From positions 2,241 to 66,240 of the forward strand of contig DATCDU010000011.1 of the NCBI GenBank assembly GCA_036510525.1: 64,000 bases of DNA. Direction: 5' to 3'. Made by a program: the position numbers and the translations under genes. Positions within the stretch are counted from its first letter, which is position 1. Each line of letters begins with the position of its first letter. Under the pieces are notes generated by a model. That model searched no databases. It saw only the letters and a list, made by a program, of their open reading frames with translations, and was not told where the DNA came from. The DNA comes from Minisyncoccota bacterium. Lineage in GTDB: Bacteria; Patescibacteriota; Minisyncoccia; UBA6257; 2-01-FULL-56-20. Below are positions 48,773 through 62,121 of the stretch, in pieces.

Positions 48773-49543
48773 TCAGTGCTCTATGATCGGTTGCGGAAGC
48801 AACAGTCCCTCGAGCCGTATATTATTCTTTTGCAAATTGCCTTCCACCTCGCGCCATTTCTCCACCGTATCGATCCCTTTTGAATAATCGTCGCATTCGT
48901 ATGAGTAGAACGACTCCCCTTTTTTGATGACGTCCGGGAGGAGATCGCGACCGATCTCGTAATAGCGGTCGGTCGGATCGTACGAGAGTATCTTTTTATT
49001 CATAATGAACGTCCCGCGCATGCGGTAGGCGTTCGGATATTTTTCCGTGTGTGGTTTCGGATGGATCGCCACGAACTTGCCGTTGGCATCGAGCTCCGCC
49101 ACGTCGGCGTCGGCATAGTCTTCCAATTTTTGCATCCTCTGCATGCCGATCGCGCCGGCCGGCTTCTCGCGCCACACCTGTTCCATCTTTGTATAATCGA
49201 TCAGGCTCAGCATGTCGCCGTAGATCACAAAAAATTCCTCATCCGCATATTTTTCGAACTGCTTGCAACTGCCCGCGGTGCCCGGCGGCTCTTTCTCAAG
49301 GTTGTACGTGATTTTTACTCCCCACTTCGATCCGTCGCCCAAGTACTCACGCATCACTTCCGGCATCGTGTAGAGGTTGATAAGAAAATCGGTGACGCCG
49401 TGCTTTTTGAACTGCACGATGTTCCACTCCGTGAGCGGATTACCCAAGATCGGAATCATCTGCTTGGACATCGTATTGGTATACGGGCGGAGGCGGGTGC
49501 CGAGACCGCCGCAGAGAAGGATCGCTTGTTTGATCTTGGTCAT
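48773..49543 (-). CDS. sugar-1-phosphate nucleotidyltransferase, probable D-glycero-alpha-D-manno-heptose 1-phosphate guanylyltransferase (HddC-like)
   Basis: MTKIKQAILLCGGLGTRLRPYT is an NTP_transferase G-rich loop. It immediately precedes gmhB, which sets the context. Confidence 0.7.
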   Translation of the reverse strand: MTKIKQAILLCGGLGTRLRPYTNTMSKQMIPILGNPLTEWNIVQFKKHGVTDFLINLYTMPEVMREYLGDGSKWGVKITYNLEKEPPGTAGSCKQFEKYADEEFFVIYGDMLSLIDYTKMEQVWREKPAGAIGMQRMQKLEDYADADVAELDANGKFVAIHPKPHTEKYPNAYRMRGTFIMNKKILSYDPTDRYYEIGRDLLPDVIKKGESFYSYECDDYSKGIDTVEKWREVEGNLQKNNIRLEGLLLPQPIIEH

Positions 49544-50124
49544 AGTGTTGATTTTTTTATTATGTTTACCGTACCCGCGAGGTCACGGACGATGAAGTCT
49601 GGCTTGCCTTCATGCTGCCAGGGATCCTTGCCGCCATGCCCCGTCCGCACGAGTATCATCTTAACCTTCGCGCGATTTCCCGCGAGGATGTCCTGCGTGC
49701 TATCGCCGATAAGAAAACTTTTTTTGAGATCGATGCCATGATCTTTCGCCGCCTGGAGTATCATCCCCGGCGCCGGCTTCCGGCATTTGCACACCATCCG
49801 ATATTTTTTCACGTTCGCCAACGGATGATGCGGGCAATAATAGACGGCGTCGATCGTTGCGCCACGCTTCCCTAAGCGGTCGATGAGTACGGCATGGATA
49901 TGATCTACCTCTTTCGGCCCGATCATCCCGCGAGCGACGACGGGCTGGTTCGTCACGATGACCACCAGATATCCCATCTTGTTGAAGGCTTTGATGGCTG
50001 GCGCGGCGGCGGGAAAAAGTTTCAACTGCGACGGTTTATGCAAAAGCTCCACCTGGCGGATGATCGTCCCATCACGGTCAAGGAACACCGCCGGACGTTT
50101 CTTCTTTTTTTGTGAGGCAGGCAT
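49540..50124 (-). CDS. gmhB: D-glycero-D-manno-heptose 1,7-bisphosphate phosphatase (HAD-IIIA, GmhB)
   Basis: FLDRDGTII (DxD motif). Zinc-binding CPHHP...CKCRKP. GDSTQD. Confidence 0.8.
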   Translation of the reverse strand: MPASQKKKKRPAVFLDRDGTIIRQVELLHKPSQLKLFPAAAPAIKAFNKMGYLVVIVTNQPVVARGMIGPKEVDHIHAVLIDRLGKRGATIDAVYYCPHHPLANVKKYRMVCKCRKPAPGMILQAAKDHGIDLKKSFLIGDSTQDILAGNRAKVKMILVRTGHGGKDPWQHEGKPDFIVRDLAGTVNIIKKSTL

Positions 50125-50299
50125 CCCTTTATATTCCGCTAAGCCGTCGTTTTTTTCAACTTGACTATTATACGGAAAGGTGTAATAATCCGCCCAGCAC
50201 TAGCACGATCGGTGCGGATTCAAAATTCGAAATTCATGAGGTGGTCCTTGCTTTCCCTCTTTAAGACCTTCGATACCCCTTGGCCCTATCCTTCTCGCA

Positions 50300-60051: not shown

Positions 60052-60537
60052 ATGAAGCAATCATGCACGAAAATAAAAAGTATTTCTGAGATCGCAGCTA
60101 TCGCAAAGCGAGCGAAGCGGACCGGGAAGACCGTCGTGACCACGAATGGTGCGTTCGATCTCCTCCATATCGGTCATGTGCGCAACTTACAGATGGCAAA
60201 ATCGGCCGGCGATATCTTGATCGTCGGAGTGAACTCGGACAGGTCCGTACGGACGCGCAAAGATAAGACGCGGCCTATCGTGCCGGAAGTGGAGCGGGCG
60301 GAAGTGATCGCGGCGCTTGAAGCGGTCGATTATGTTTTCATTTTCAGCACGCCGGATCCCATCCCGTGGCTCGAAAAGATCAGGCCGAATGTTCACGCAA
60401 AAGGCGCGGATCGAACGATCGATCAAATAGTGGAATTGTCGGCCGTAAAAAAGCACGGCGGGAAAATTCTCCGCGTCCCCTATATCAAAGGGCACTCAAC
60501 CTCGAATATTATCAAGAAGATAAAATCACTTCCCTAG
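60052..60537 (+). CDS. D-beta-D-heptose 1-phosphate adenylyltransferase (RfaE domain II, cytidylyltransferase fold)
   Basis: VVTTNGAFDLLHIGHVRNLQMAK...ILIVGVNSD. Confidence 0.8.
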   Translation: MKQSCTKIKSISEIAAIAKRAKRTGKTVVTTNGAFDLLHIGHVRNLQMAKSAGDILIVGVNSDRSVRTRKDKTRPIVPEVERAEVIAALEAVDYVFIFSTPDPIPWLEKIRPNVHAKGADRTIDQIVELSAVKKHGGKILRVPYIKGHSTSNIIKKIKSLP

Positions 60538-61226
60538 GCGTCTACCGCTTTCTTGATCTGTACGGCCACTTCCAAGAGATTGCTCACAACAAACACCTTG
60601 TCGGGAAATTGATCTTGTATCTCGACGATCTTTTCCGCCTCTCTGTTCTTGTTTGTTCTCGACGATCGCACAAAAAAGGAAACACATCCGGCACGCAGCC
60701 CCGTTTCAACATCCGTTACGCGATCCCCAATCATGAATTTGTGGCGGACCTCAGATAGCCGCTCTCCAAACATCTCCGCCGCGTCCCCCAGCATGCCGAT
60801 ATTCGGCTTAAGGCATCGCGCATTGTCATTGATGTATCGTGCATCAACCTGGCGTCCCTTCAAGGCGGCTTTTCTCGCGTAATCAGAACTCACAAAAGGG
60901 CAAAATCGATAGCCATCAACGCGGCATCCATCATCTTTCAACTTGGAAATAATGAGTTCGTTGACTTCTCGGGCTGCCGCTTCGGTGAGCAGTTCGAAGT
61001 CGGGGCCTGCGAGTGCAACCCCCGACTGGTTCGTCACCAACACAAACTTTGCATTTGAAATGGCGTTCAGGGATCGAATGCCTTCAATGACGCCGGGAAG
61101 AAACTCGATTTGTTCCTTCCAGTGCGGATTCGAACCGAGATAATAATCCTCATCGCGATTGATTGTCCCGTCGCGATCGGCGCATATGAGGACGATGTGA
61201 TTAGAGGACGCCATAGGCTCAAGCAA
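60534..61226 (-). CDS. HAD-IIIA family phosphatase, second GmhB-like heptose bisphosphate phosphatase
   Basis: VLICADRDGTIN...LVTNQSG...MIGDRVTD. Confidence 0.65.
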   Translation of the reverse strand: MLEPMASSNHIVLICADRDGTINRDEDYYLGSNPHWKEQIEFLPGVIEGIRSLNAISNAKFVLVTNQSGVALAGPDFELLTEAAAREVNELIISKLKDDGCRVDGYRFCPFVSSDYARKAALKGRQVDARYINDNARCLKPNIGMLGDAAEMFGERLSEVRHKFMIGDRVTDVETGLRAGCVSFFVRSSRTNKNREAEKIVEIQDQFPDKVFVVSNLLEVAVQIKKAVDA

Positions 61227-62121
61227 TGAGAAATCCGCTTTCGTAATAATCTTTTATCCCCGCCTCCGGAGTATACTGTGGCACGAATCCGATTTTTTCC
61301 TTCGCGAGCGTCATATCGCATTGGGTAAAATTCTGATACCGATCCGCATATGGATTATCTATGTATTCCGGCACGCGGTGCAGGCCCATGACATTATTGA
61401 GAATAGCAACCACATCATTGAAGGTCGTGGCCGTGCCGGAACCGCAATTGACCACACAGCTCTCTTCGGCGTCGAGCGCCAGTATATTTGCCTTCACGAC
61501 ATCTTTCACATAAATATAATCGCGCTTCTGCTCGCCGGTCTTGAACATGCGCGGATTGCCTTTCGTTATCTGCCGCGCCAATTGATAGATCATGCTCGCC
61601 CGCGCCCCTTTATGTGATTCACGCGGACCATATACATTACAATAGCGAAGGCCGATGATCGTTATTTCGGGATGCAGCGCCGCGAACGCCATCGCTTTTT
61701 GATCGAGCAGCAATTTGGAAACGCCGTACGGGTTCAACGGCTCAAGCCCCTTATCTTCAATGTATGGAGCTGGTGTCGCGCCGTACACAGCAGTAGAAGA
61801 AGCGTAGACGATATGCTTGCATCCATGCGCCACTGCATATTCAAAAAGCGCTATGGAAGCATCTGTGTTCGCGCGGATCATCTCACGCTCGTCAAGCAGC
61901 GTCGTATCATTGATCGCCGCTTCATGGACCACAGCATCGATCTCTCCGATCGCTTCCCAATCAATCCCCGAAAGACCCGGCTGGAGATATTTCCCCTTAA
62001 AGCTCGGCAACTTTTGCTCGGCATCGTTGCCGGTTATAAGCACGTCGTGCCCGCGGGCGATAAGATCAAGTGCAATGTTCGAACCGATGAACCCAGTGCC
62101 GCCGGTGACGAGGATTCTCAT
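61219..62121 (-). CDS. hldD: ADP-L-glycero-D-manno-heptose 6-epimerase-like NAD-dependent epimerase (HldD/RfaD-like)
   Basis: MRILVTGGTGFIGSNIALDLIARGHDVLI. Extended SDR with YxxxK. Sits within the RfaE gene context. Confidence 0.7.
   Translation of the reverse strand: MRILVTGGTGFIGSNIALDLIARGHDVLITGNDAEQKLPSFKGKYLQPGLSGIDWEAIGEIDAVVHEAAINDTTLLDEREMIRANTDASIALFEYAVAHGCKHIVYASSTAVYGATPAPYIEDKGLEPLNPYGVSKLLLDQKAMAFAALHPEITIIGLRYCNVYGPRESHKGARASMIYQLARQITKGNPRMFKTGEQKRDYIYVKDVVKANILALDAEESCVVNCGSGTATTFNDVVAILNNVMGLHRVPEYIDNPYADRYQNFTQCDMTLAKEKIGFVPQYTPEAGIKDYYESGFLIA

Follow-up and report, generated by a model that had tools for sequence, protein, structure and literature searches.

Two gene sets, for ADP-heptose and possibly a second higher-carbon sugar, in a putative surface-glycan locus of a Candidatus Paceibacterota bacterium

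In bacteria that possess both heptose pathways, one isomerase, GmhA, serves the two of them. The GDP-heptose loci known to us lack a transaldolase. The GDP-octose pathway of lincomycin is initiated by a transaldolase, and we know of no aldo-octose in a bacterial polysaccharide.

The synthesis of ADP-heptose has already been reported as encoded in Paceibacteria (PMC9166423). The window, which is the whole stretch of 64,000 nucleotides that was analysed, contains at its right end what is, with somewhat better than even prospects, a surface-glycan locus made of two independent modules, A and B, each complete and each devoted to a nucleotide-activated higher-carbon sugar.

The locus, its host and the assembly genes

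All open reading frames named in a first-pass annotation of the window were recovered at their coordinates and on their strands, and the claimed domain family was found in each of them (ORF check and HMM searches). The HMM E-values range from 1e-15 to 1e-97 and orthologues with 45-100% identity keep their order in many other contigs, so the frames are real genes and not chance ones. Judging from its proteins, the host, a tiny uncultured bacterium, is a member of Candidatus Paceibacterota (CPR): a protein search returned entries of this group that are 100% identical to the kinase-cupin protein and to the SIS protein, which bears out the CPR bacterium suspected earlier.

The annotation had also distinguished two activation routes, one using a PfkB kinase and an adenylyltransferase, the other a GHMP kinase and an NTP-transferase. 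Both gene sets are indeed present. Each set is found alone elsewhere, module A without module B in loci L004, L008, L009, L013 and L080, and module B without module A in L005-L007, L134, L172 and L173. The GT2/GT4 transferases, the WbaP-like transferase and the Wzx flippase described as neighbours were found by Pfam. The flanking and assembly genes are as follows.

38867..44827 (.), assembly genes: PAP2-like membrane protein, GT4, two GT2 and the WbaP-like phosphoglycosyl transferase (Pfam; the last at 43448-44827)
44946..45869 (+), NAD-dependent epimerase/dehydratase (PF01370/PF16363; GalE 175 bits, dTDP-glucose dehydratase 165 bits)
45866..46363 (-), third nucleotidyltransferase, cytidylyltransferase-like (PF01467; RfaE-II 76 bits and TagD 54 bits, both far under the cut-offs; 71-75% identity in L005, L006 and L098)
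46357..47895 (+), Wzx-type flippase (PF01943/PF13440; 56-84% identity in L005 and L006)
47902..48765 (-), GT2 glycosyltransferase (PF00535)

The last of these always follows the nucleotidyltransferase in the CPR cassettes and adjoins it in L005 and L006 (53-63% identity).

The ADP-heptose set and its cupin domain

Module A (58688-63768) comprises the following genes.

58688..59035 (-), PMI-type cupin domain, proposed sedoheptulose-7-P isomerase (Cupin_2 49.5 bits; PF01050 26.6 bits, above the gathering cut-off of 23.6)
59036..59995 (-), HldA / RfaE domain I heptose-7-P kinase domain, part of the fusion gene 58688-59995 (TIGR02198 324 bits, cut-off 345; ribokinase next at 91)
60052..60537 (+), HldC / RfaE domain II heptose-1-P adenylyltransferase (TIGR02199 167.7 bits, cut-off 181.5)
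60534..61214 (-), divergent GmhB-like HAD-IIIA phosphatase (NF006506 90 bits, cut-off 178)
61219..62121 (-), HldD-like ADP-heptose 6-epimerase (TIGR02197 252.8 bits, cut-off 274.6; GalE second at 110)
62124..63002 (-), transketolase C-terminal subunit (PF02779/PF02780)
63007..63768 (-), transketolase N-terminal subunit, a dedicated paralogue linked to module A (PF00456)
63768..64000 (-), C-terminal end of a Zn-dependent alcohol dehydrogenase (Zn-ADH, 345 aa), which leaves the window

On sequence grounds, the assignment of the kinase, adenylyltransferase, phosphatase and epimerase to the synthesis of ADP-L-glycero-beta-D-manno-heptose holds. As annotated earlier, each of the four has the expected family as its top match by a wide margin, 14-88 bits below the NCBI equivalog cut-offs. 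The phosphatase frame extends to 61226, with the true start probably at 61214, and its translation contains the motifs DRDGT, TNQSG, KP and GDxxxD. Orthologues of the epimerase are present in the kinase-cupin operons L002, L008 and L009 and in L013, and GT9 heptosyltransferases adjoin the ADP-heptose genes in relatives.

The split transketolase of the first-pass annotation is present as two adjacent genes. Its N-terminal subunit is 81% identical to that of the Liptonbacteria locus L002 versus 36% to the housekeeping transketolase of L003, and best matches a split-chain transketolase in the PDB (6yak, E 1e-64); for the C-terminal subunit the identities are 74% and 26%, respectively. The locus runs on beyond the window end with the Zn-ADH, which the annotation had not described. 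The L001 gene, called with ADH_N/ADH_zinc_N domains, matches the window at 100% over residues 269-345 (tblastn), and L002 has a Zn-ADH at the equivalent position. The split transketolase and the Zn-ADH are linked to module A in both Paceibacterota and Liptonbacteria, and would serve either the supply of sedoheptulose 7-phosphate (S7P) or further tailoring.

A C-terminal cupin domain in the kinase gene (residues ~330-435) had also gone unnoticed. It scores 26.6 and 30.0 bits with PF01050 and shares 29% identity with the PMI domain of a true ManC. Among 25 aligned sequences 28 columns are invariant, and the HxH...E...H metal motif, with its three histidines and its glutamate, is invariant both there and in an alignment of 41. 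The AF2 model (pLDDT 93) has as its top fold match a cupin phosphomannose isomerase (7zvy, TM 0.79-0.83), although Foldseek matches at 4e-9 to 1e-7 extend across many functions and separate it only weakly from other cupins. The cupin probably replaces GmhA in module A, converting sedoheptulose 7-P to D-glycero-D-manno-heptose 7-P, a reaction that would be the C7 analogue of fructose-6-P to mannose-6-P. The PfkB (HldA) domain would then phosphorylate C1 in the beta configuration, the HAD phosphatase would remove the 7-phosphate, HldC would adenylylate the sugar and the HldD-like enzyme would epimerise C6.

It is also possible, if rather doubtful, that both routes rely on the SIS protein, or on a GmhA whose gene lies elsewhere, and that the cupin acts as a PMI for GDP-mannose, as an epimerase of sugar nucleotides or as a ligand-binding domain with a regulatory role. 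A SIS isomerase is present in the window, 6 kb downstream of the kinase-cupin gene and in the same direction, and cupins are functionally so diverse that fold matches do not discriminate among them. Canonical GmhA is near none of 8 cupin loci and near 14 of about 76 cupin-less kinase loci, a difference that is not statistically significant. The genomes of the 8 loci possibly encode GmhA elsewhere. However, in the compact operons L008, L009, L080 and L013 the cupin is the sole isomerase beside all the other ADP-heptose steps and the GT9 that would consume the product. The CPR operons L008 and L009 read kinase-cupin / HldC-HAD fusion / epimerase / GT9 and contain no SIS gene; the Peribacteria locus L080 reads cupin-kinase, in reversed order, / HAD / HldC / GT9, and the Woesearchaeota locus L013 stand-alone cupin / HldD / kinase / HldC. 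The cupin thus occurs on either side of the kinase or by itself in the operon, an arrangement that consecutive enzymes would be expected to show. The invariance of the metal-binding motif argues for catalysis; RmlC-type epimerase cupins, as far as we are aware, lack this motif, and the sequence matches are to PMI and lyxose-isomerase cupins. A cupin isomerase belonging to module A is therefore preferred, and the SIS protein is probably not used in the ADP route.

The transaldolase-led cassette

Module B (about 44946-58669) departs from the textbook route to GDP-heptose. In addition to the genes at its left end listed above, it contains the following.

48773..49543 (-), sugar-1-phosphate nucleotidyltransferase (PF00483)
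49540..50124 (-), GmhB-type HAD-IIIA sugar-bisphosphate phosphatase (NF006506 158.7 bits, cut-off 178; alpha-type model NF050049 97.5 bits, cut-off 250)
50300..51034 (+), conserved DUF218-like protein, accessory of the cassette in CPR (DUF218, weak)
51231..52094 (+), IMPase-family phosphatase, accessory of the cassette in CPR (PF00459)
52146..52757 (-), SIS-domain aldose-ketose isomerase of a distinct GmhA-related subfamily (gmhA 55.8 bits, cut-off 209)
52782..53510 (-), transaldolase, integral first enzyme of the cassette (TIGR02134 323 bits, above the cut-off of 282)
53557..54582 (-), Gfo/Idh/MocA oxidoreductase, a cassette member across phyla (PF01408/PF22725)
54579..55418 (-), classical SDR oxidoreductase (PF00106; conserved in L005-L007, L134, L172 and L173)
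55423..56724 (-), NDP-sugar dehydrogenase (TIGR03026 317 bits, above cut-off)
56729..57715 (-), HddA-type GHMP sugar-phosphate 1-kinase (HddA best NCBIfam family, 170.6 bits, cut-off 600)
57749..58669 (-), GalE-like SDR epimerase/dehydratase (PF01370)

The gene order is kept at 45-84% identity in the CPR loci L005-L007, and the same cassette is found in Acidobacteriota, on plasmid 3 of Lawsonia intracellularis and on a megaplasmid of Rhizobium jaguaris. The GalE-like SDR adjoins the GHMP kinase in L002, L005-L007 and L092 (51-66% identity). Four conserved enzymes between the two sets (this epimerase, the NDP-sugar dehydrogenase, the SDR and the Gfo/Idh/MocA oxidoreductase) were absent from the first-pass annotation, as were the IMPase-family and DUF218-like genes between the SIS gene and gmhB. 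The IMPase-family protein is 38-54% identical to its positional counterparts in L006, L007 and L092 and had no PDB sequence match at 1e-6. The DUF218-like protein shares 40-43% identity with genes of L005, L007 and, in two copies, L006; it had no profile match at default thresholds, and DUF218 matches all five aligned members weakly (best E 8.7e-5).

The transaldolase retains all its catalytic residues, and is a TAL and not an FSA because Phe replaces Tyr. Around 28 metagenomic homologues with flanks, SIS genes are present in 24, HAD genes in 26 and GHMP kinase genes in 25, and a transketolase gene in one. SIS-HAD and NT-SIS (NTP_transferase) fusion proteins also exist. In the proposed pathway the transaldolase would build a ketose phosphate, which the SIS isomerase, with its remodelled phosphate site, would convert to an aldose phosphate. 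The GHMP kinase would add an alpha-1-phosphate, the GmhB-type phosphatase would remove the distal phosphate and the nucleotidyltransferase would activate the sugar. The epimerase, dehydrogenase, SDR and Gfo/Idh/MocA enzyme would tailor the product, to be used by the adjacent GT2 and Wzx. The acceptor of the transaldolase, the chain length of the sugar and the nucleotide are putative.

The earlier model was simpler: the transaldolase and transketolase merely raise the supply of S7P. The oxidoreductases would then either tailor a heptose or produce sugars unrelated to it, UDP-glucuronate for instance. This model is not the likelier account, but a tenable one. Plain heptose is the simplest reading of module B, since S7P is both the normal product of transaldolase and the natural substrate of GmhA-type enzymes. 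The GHMP kinase is, on its family matches, a member of the HddA clade, closest to heptokinases (3k85, 4usk/4usm (WcbL) and 4n3o at E 1e-44 to 1e-38 versus 1e-18 for fucokinase in a PDB sequence search), and the GmhB-type HAD reaches 159 bits of 178. GmhA enzymes are the sole detectable relatives of known function of the SIS protein, which keeps a four-residue metal site. The dehydrogenase resembles UDP-glucose dehydrogenase (best PDB match 4a7p, E 1e-73) and is optional, being retained in the Lawsonia and Rhizobium cassettes and missing from some others (L005, L006).

Several observations weigh against the earlier model. The transaldolase is not a loose supplier but a fixed operon member in four phyla (CPR, Acidobacteriota, Lawsonia and Rhizobium), including Rhizobium, which is free-living, and Acidobacteriota with large genomes (contigs of up to 6.6 Mb), in which a full pentose phosphate pathway is expected. 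A literature search found no paper pairing a transaldolase with GDP-heptose loci. The SIS protein, once assigned as gmhA, belongs to a separate subfamily: it scores a quarter of the gmhA cut-off, whereas the module A enzymes, from the same genome, mostly come near theirs, the module A HAD (90 versus 178 bits) excepted. It matches GmhA structures at only 5e-9 (PDB sequence search), and differs from canonical GmhA in the substitutions E65D and Q172E, in the loss of 5 residues after E65 and in 6 additional residues within the phosphate loop. Among the 120 matches listed from a search of 8000 candidates, identities are 73-100% and the organism-named ones are CPR. The heptose-family placement suggested for the kinase and nucleotidyltransferase stands for the former and fails for the latter, which is not HddC-like: among NCBIfam families it matches Man-1-P guanylyltransferase best (101 bits) and HddC fifth best (79 bits, cut-off 300), and its nearest structure is a UTP-Glc-1-P uridylyltransferase (8x7s, E 3e-29, versus 3e-13 for HddC 5xhw). 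Given this rank and this relative, GDP is not established as the module B nucleotide.

That the two sets form one pathway, both acting on one transaldolase- or transketolase-built sugar or one of them decaying, is very improbable. Only 18 bp separate the kinase-cupin gene from the module B epimerase, which lies downstream of it on the same strand, so that co-transcription of the sets is possible, but each occurs alone in other genomes and all genes are intact with conserved catalytic motifs.

Comparison with the lincomycin octose pathway

Compared by family-level gene content, module B matches the lincomycin GDP-octose pathway family for family, LmbR/N/P/K/O and then M/L/Z. We take the NDP-sugar dehydrogenase to occupy the LmbL-family position, and the Gfo/Idh/MocA oxidoreductase presumably that of LmbZ. 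Unlike the lincomycin pathway, module B has no aminotransferase. The resemblance of the dehydrogenase to an ordinary UDP-glucose dehydrogenase, and its absence from two of the CPR loci, count against an octose. The fixed transaldolase, by analogy, fits the lincomycin pathway no less well than it fits a heptose pathway, and module B may be a widespread transaldolase-led cassette whose product is an eight-carbon sugar rather than GDP-heptose.

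The glycan locus and its host

In the window, housekeeping genes of the ordinary kind (ParB, IF-2, GyrB and GroEL) lie to the left, and a glycan locus occupies the right end. All the ORFs listed for this locus in the first-pass annotation were recovered with the same coordinates and strands, and the domain families claimed for each of them are borne out by family and domain profile matches. The assembly genes (GT4, GT2, a WbaP-like phosphoglycosyl transferase and Wzx) were found beside the locus by domain matches. The kinase-cupin and SIS proteins are 100% identical to entries named Candidatus Paceibacterota bacterium, and the host is therefore the LPS-less CPR cell for which that annotation had hoped. 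To our knowledge, CPR bacteria lack LPS, and the chemistry of their surfaces is uncharacterised. From right to left, the locus is composed of the following genes.

Genes of the glycan locus, right to left
Zn-dependent alcohol dehydrogenase (Zn-ADH), minus strand, running off the window
Transketolase N and C subunits, minus strand
HldD-like epimerase, minus strand
60534-61214, minus strand, HAD phosphatase
RfaE-II adenylyltransferase, plus strand
58688-59995, minus strand, RfaE-I kinase fused to a cupin
GalE-like epimerase, minus strand
HddA-type GHMP kinase, minus strand
55423-56724, minus strand, NDP-sugar dehydrogenase (433 aa)
SDR, minus strand
Gfo/Idh/MocA oxidoreductase, minus strand
52782-53510, minus strand, transaldolase
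52146-52757, minus strand, SIS isomerase
51231-52094, plus strand, IMPase-family phosphatase
50300-51034, plus strand, DUF218-like protein (244 aa)
GmhB-type HAD, minus strand
Nucleotidyltransferase, minus strand
GT2, minus strand
Wzx, plus strand
45866-46363, minus strand, cytidylyltransferase-like protein
44946-45869, plus strand, epimerase/dehydratase

The mechanical ORF of the NDP-sugar dehydrogenase (55423-56892, minus strand) extends 164 bp into the GHMP kinase gene; on an identical contig the gene was called from 56724, which gives the 433-aa protein.

The locus is comprised of two modules, which abut in the window on the same strand with a gap of 18 bp. Module A (58688-63768) is the set for ADP-L-glycero-beta-D-manno-heptose, and module B, or cassette B (about 44946-58669), is built around the transaldolase, the SIS isomerase and the GHMP kinase. 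Module A occurs without B in five comparison loci (L004, the CPR contigs L008 and L009, L013 from a Woesearchaeota archaeon and L080 from a Peribacteria genome), and B without A in six (the CPR loci L005-L007, L134, L172 from Lawsonia and L173). The earlier proposal of two parallel routes to activated heptose-type sugars is basically right; its GDP-D-alpha-D-heptose label is not established, and some of its gene labels are contradicted below. That a single locus devotes two pathways to higher sugars indicates that heptose-type sugars are major components of the CPR surface there.

Two further ORFs of the window may be recorded. In one (23854-25344, plus strand, 496 aa), an RnfD/NqrB-like membrane domain is joined to FAD- and NAD-binding domains of the ferredoxin-reductase type, a fusion unusual for a CPR genome. 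The other (26615-27958, plus strand, 447 aa) has no Pfam match.

Module A and the cupin of its kinase

The RfaE-I kinase matches TIGR02198 over the full model with 324 bits, 21 below the cut-off of 345, and the next family lies 230 bits lower. The HldC (RfaE-II) adenylyltransferase reaches 167.7 bits over the full TIGR02199 model (cut-off 181.5), its best family by a wide margin, and the HldD-like epimerase 252.8 bits with TIGR02197 (cut-off 274.6), followed by GalE at 110. By their profile scores, these three proteins qualify as members of the ADP-heptose pathway. The HAD phosphatase has GmhB as its best family but is a weaker relative of it (90 bits vs 178), in which the HAD catalytic motifs are kept and the Zn-loop is degenerate. 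Its putative GmhB role is supported by its adjacency to HldC and by the HldC-HAD fusions of L008 and L009. In these two contigs, HldC and the GmhB-like HAD form one protein of 333-336 aa (L008 11307-12317, L009 11293-12294), and in such CPR genomes five enzymatic steps are covered by three genes. ADP-heptose synthesis in Paceibacteria has already been reported from KEGG-type annotation (PMC9166423).

Canonical GmhA is absent from the 64-kb window. The sole SIS protein, which had been labelled gmhA, scores 55.8 bits, a quarter of the cut-off of 209, and belongs to a distinct, transaldolase-linked subfamily. A GT9 heptosyltransferase was likewise not found in the 64 kb by tblastn; the locus extends beyond the window end, and GT9 adjoins the orthologous module A genes in the Liptonbacteria locus L002 and in L004, L008, L009 and L080.

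The C-terminal part of the kinase protein (residues ~330-435) is a Cupin_2 domain, which the first-pass annotation had missed. It passes PF01050, the C-terminal domain of type II phosphomannose isomerase (PMI), with 26.6 bits in the window and 30.0 bits in L013 (gathering cut-off 23.6). The fusion is the rule in this lineage, being present in all but two of the best 120 homologues listed (48-73% identity); these are mostly metagenomic, and the named ones are Paceibacterota, Liptonbacteria, Parcubacteria or Daviesbacteria. A closed CPR genome with the fusion is CP066688.1. The cupin is the most conserved stretch of the protein, and its HxH...E...H metal site (H361, H363, E368 and H402) is invariant in 41 of 41 aligned homologues. 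Its sequence identity with the PMI domain of a genuine ManC is 29%, and its AF2 model (pLDDT 93) has the cupin PMI 7zvy as the best fold match. By profile score, the domain belongs to the PF01050 cupin PMI family, and it keeps the metal ligands.

The gene order of related operons is the main argument for its function. L008 and L009 encode, in succession, the kinase-cupin, the HldC-HAD fusion, the epimerase and a GT9 heptosyltransferase. The L080 operon consists of a cupin-kinase with the domains in reversed order, HAD, HldC and GT9, and that of L013 of a separate 128-residue cupin gene, HldD, the kinase and HldC. Because these compact operons encode every other step of ADP-L,D-heptose synthesis, the cupin is left as the sole isomerase candidate. 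It would convert sedoheptulose-7-P (S7P) to D-glycero-D-manno-heptose-7-P as the first step of module A, a reaction which is the one-carbon-longer analogue of the conversion of fructose-6-P to mannose-6-P. Based on the operon context, the invariant metal site, the PMI-like sequence and fold and the analogous chemistry, it is postulated that the cupin, acting as an aldose-ketose isomerase, probably replaces GmhA, a proposal held with somewhat more belief than doubt.

Against it stand the poor discrimination of the fold matches and the possibility that GmhA is encoded elsewhere in these genomes. The contig scan with the kinase-cupin alignment, which yielded L013 and L080, was dominated by the kinase-only pattern and returned mostly ordinary HldA/HldE loci; these served as the comparison set for GmhA adjacency. 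GmhA was found near none of 8 cupin loci and near 14 of about 76 ordinary kinase loci, a difference that is not significant because so few of the ordinary loci have one nearby. A literature search found no paper on an S7P-isomerase cupin replacing GmhA. GmhA is an antibiotic-adjuvant target and ADP-heptose an innate-immune agonist. Should the cupin prove to isomerise S7P, it would be a non-orthologous substitute for GmhA, and pathway-completeness calls based on GmhA would overlook ADP-heptose producers.

The split transketolase linked to module A is of the regular split-chain type (best PDB match 6yak). It shares 74-81% identity with its Liptonbacteria counterpart, found between the same genes, and is a dedicated paralogue. 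A housekeeping role was rejected, as the identity to the transketolase in the pentose phosphate cluster of a related CPR genome is 26-36%. S7P supply is a plausible function; a tailoring function exerted jointly with the Zn-ADH is conceivable. The Zn-ADH precedes the split transketolase both in Paceibacterota (window 62124-64000, minus strand) and in Liptonbacteria (L002 7290-10008).

Cassette B and its product

The transaldolase passes its equivalog model and has every catalytic residue of a true transaldolase; the alternative of a fructose-6-P aldolase was rejected on account of Phe instead of Tyr at the diagnostic position. An exact-protein look-up gave no match. In CPR loci the gene is directly upstream of the SIS gene, with a gap of 8-180 bp in close metagenomic relatives. 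A metagenome scan gave 28 homologue loci flanked by 3 kb or more on each side; of these, 26 contained HAD, 25 the GHMP kinase, 24 SIS and 1 a transketolase. In a second layout, found in Acidobacteriota (Thermoanaerobaculia) on contigs of up to 6.6 Mb, the GHMP kinase, nucleotidyltransferase, SIS, HAD and transaldolase genes are contiguous. In Rhizobium jaguaris CCGE525, the cassette forms nine contiguous genes on a megaplasmid (pRCCGE525c, 965-986 kb). In the pig pathogen Lawsonia intracellularis it is carried whole by plasmid 3 (L172, NC_008014.1 14573-22924) and comprises SIS, HAD, transaldolase, NDP-sugar dehydrogenase, SDR, Gfo/Idh/MocA, GHMP kinase and nucleotidyltransferase. There the kinase is annotated as a galactokinase and the transaldolase as an enzyme of the pentose phosphate shunt, and both annotations are probably wrong. 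The view that the transaldolase supplies S7P is not established; it is hard to reconcile with a dedicated enzyme in free-living bacteria that have a full central metabolism.

The GHMP kinase belongs clearly to the HddA/WcbL heptokinase clade, with PDB heptokinases matched at E 1e-44 to 1e-38. It reaches 171 of the 600 bits of the HddA equivalog model, and an octose kinase (LmbP of the lincomycin pathway) would be expected to look alike.

The SIS protein has 120 listed matches at 73-100% identity, and those with names are CPR. An exhaustive search gave 361 cluster representatives at E<1e-30, among them SIS-HAD and nucleotidyltransferase-SIS fusions, which tie the protein firmly to a sugar-nucleotide pathway. 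These two were the only kinds seen in a sample of 10 fusion proteins, none of which joined the transaldolase to SIS. The subfamily was aligned with canonical GmhA genes adjoining HldA/HldE in other genomes. It keeps the four-residue metal site with the changes E65D and Q172E, is shorter by five residues behind Glu65, carries six extra residues in the phosphate-binding loop and has a conserved C-terminal motif of its own. The cluster members of 10 SIS representatives carry only automatic 'sedoheptulose 7-phosphate isomerase' labels. One Acidobacteria homologue, P0312, was set aside as its context is unrelated. In L007, a Liptonbacteria-type locus, two paralogous SIS genes lie in one cassette (8001-8633 and 9369-9986).

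The GmhB-type HAD scores 158.7 bits with the beta-type model (cut-off 178) and 97.5 with the alpha-type model (250). The nucleotidyltransferase had been called HddC; it scores 79 bits vs 300 with that family, which ranks fifth, and profile assignment contradicts the label. The protein is closer to Man-1-P guanylyltransferases and UTP-Glc-1-P uridylyltransferase (E 3e-29) than to HddC (structure 5xhw, E 3e-13). The nucleotidyltransferases of the CPR cassettes and of the other cassettes are non-orthologous (27% identical), and this position is taken by a bona fide RmlA in one locus of Acidobacteria.

Several accessory genes accompany the CPR cassettes. The DUF218-like ORF has no Pfam or NCBIfam match at normal thresholds; unannotated genes with 40-43% identity to it lie within the cassettes of L005, L006 (two copies) and L007. 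A weak match to DUF218 (YdcF/ElyC-like; best E 8.7e-5) is common to the five aligned members. A single-sequence AF2 model (50300-51031) has pLDDT 34. The IMPase-family protein, the second phosphatase of the CPR cassette, has an intact DPLDGS motif and is kept in L006, L007 and L092; it has no PDB sequence match at E 1e-6 and is shorter than the long ORF 50742-52094 would suggest. The protein encoded by 45866-46363 is the third nucleotidyltransferase of the locus, of cytidylyltransferase fold and with similarity between RfaE-II and TagD. Together with the epimerase/dehydratase it is kept beside Wzx in L005, L006 and L098. The pair hints at a further activated glycan component, for example a CDP-alditol or a second ADP-sugar.

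The closest parallel to the gene content is the lincomycin octose pathway. In that pathway, LmbR is a transaldolase using F6P or S7P as donor and ribose-5-P as acceptor, LmbN the isomerase, LmbP the kinase, LmbK the phosphatase and LmbO the nucleotidyltransferase, and the product is tailored by the epimerase LmbM, the dehydrogenase LmbL and the oxidoreductase LmbZ. A dedicated transaldolase grouped with an isomerase, kinase, phosphatase and nucleotidyltransferase is found in the window, in 24-26 of the 28 loci and in L134, L172 and L173. Enzymes of the LmbM, LmbL and LmbZ types (the GalE-like epimerase, the NDP-sugar dehydrogenase and the Gfo/Idh/MocA enzyme) are present and co-conserved; for LmbL and LmbZ, this relies on what we take to be their Pfam families.

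By this analogy, the product of cassette B may be octose-type, a reading that is somewhat less likely than not. If so, C8 chemistry is not limited to lincosamide antibiotics, and an octose, a new class of monosaccharide for bacterial polysaccharides, would be in wide use as a component of the surface glycans of CPR, Acidobacteriota, Rhizobium and Lawsonia intracellularis. A plain heptose is a nearly equally likely alternative: it agrees with the heptokinase clade of the GHMP kinase and is at odds with a dedicated transaldolase and the distance of the SIS and nucleotidyltransferase proteins from GmhA and HddC. In that case, cassette B would represent a separate form of the GDP-heptose pathway, coupled to a transaldolase and with its own isomerase subfamily. 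Some other product is less likely, and a link to bradyrhizose was dropped, as its biosynthetic genes are undescribed. The cassette is present in cultivable organisms, Rhizobium jaguaris and Lawsonia.

Relation to known pathways

Two points of real interest may be inferred: the probable substitution of a cupin for GmhA, and a cassette, headed by a transaldolase and spread across phyla, whose make-up parallels the lincomycin octose pathway. Taken together, a reduced, widespread, Lmb-like NDP-octose route initiated by a transaldolase and a cupin-first ADP-heptose pathway of CPR and DPANN form a possible but rather uncertain picture.

Module A has the PfkB-type kinase, cytidylyltransferase-fold adenylyltransferase, HAD-IIIA phosphatase and SDR 6-epimerase of the ADP-heptose pathway for the Gram-negative LPS core, and its relatives have GT9 adjacent. 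It differs in the PMI-type cupin on the kinase and the lack of canonical GmhA, in the linkage to a dedicated split transketolase and Zn-ADH, in a window without GT9 and in its host, a CPR bacterium without LPS. Its kinase and adenylyltransferase are encoded separately, in the manner of HldA and HldC. The cupin has the same single-domain fold and HxH...E...H site as cupin-type PMIs (Thermococcus PMI 7zvy and the C-terminal domain of type II ManC). Its partner, in a fusion or an operon, is an ADP-heptose kinase instead of GDP-mannose pyrophosphorylase, and its proposed substrate is the C7 homologue S7P.

Cassette B shares with the GDP-heptose pathway the same four enzyme folds within one locus and a GHMP kinase of the HddA/WcbL clade, whereas its isomerase is a separate SIS subfamily and its nucleotidyltransferase is not HddC-like. 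The transaldolase, Gfo/Idh/MocA enzyme, SDR and NDP-sugar dehydrogenase are integral to it; we know of no GDP-heptose locus in which this is so. With the Lmb/Ccb octose pathway it has the enzyme types in common, including the unusual pathway-dedicated transaldolase, a likeness of gene content at the family level. The aminotransferase LmbS, which gives the 6-amino sugar, has no counterpart, as none of the genes at 38867-63768 encodes such a domain; the cassette has an SDR in its stead, which would fit reduction, not amination, of a keto intermediate. The setting of cassette B is not an antibiotic cluster but polysaccharide loci with glycosyltransferases, a priming transferase and Wzx, and the CPR cassettes add the IMPase-family and DUF218-like genes.
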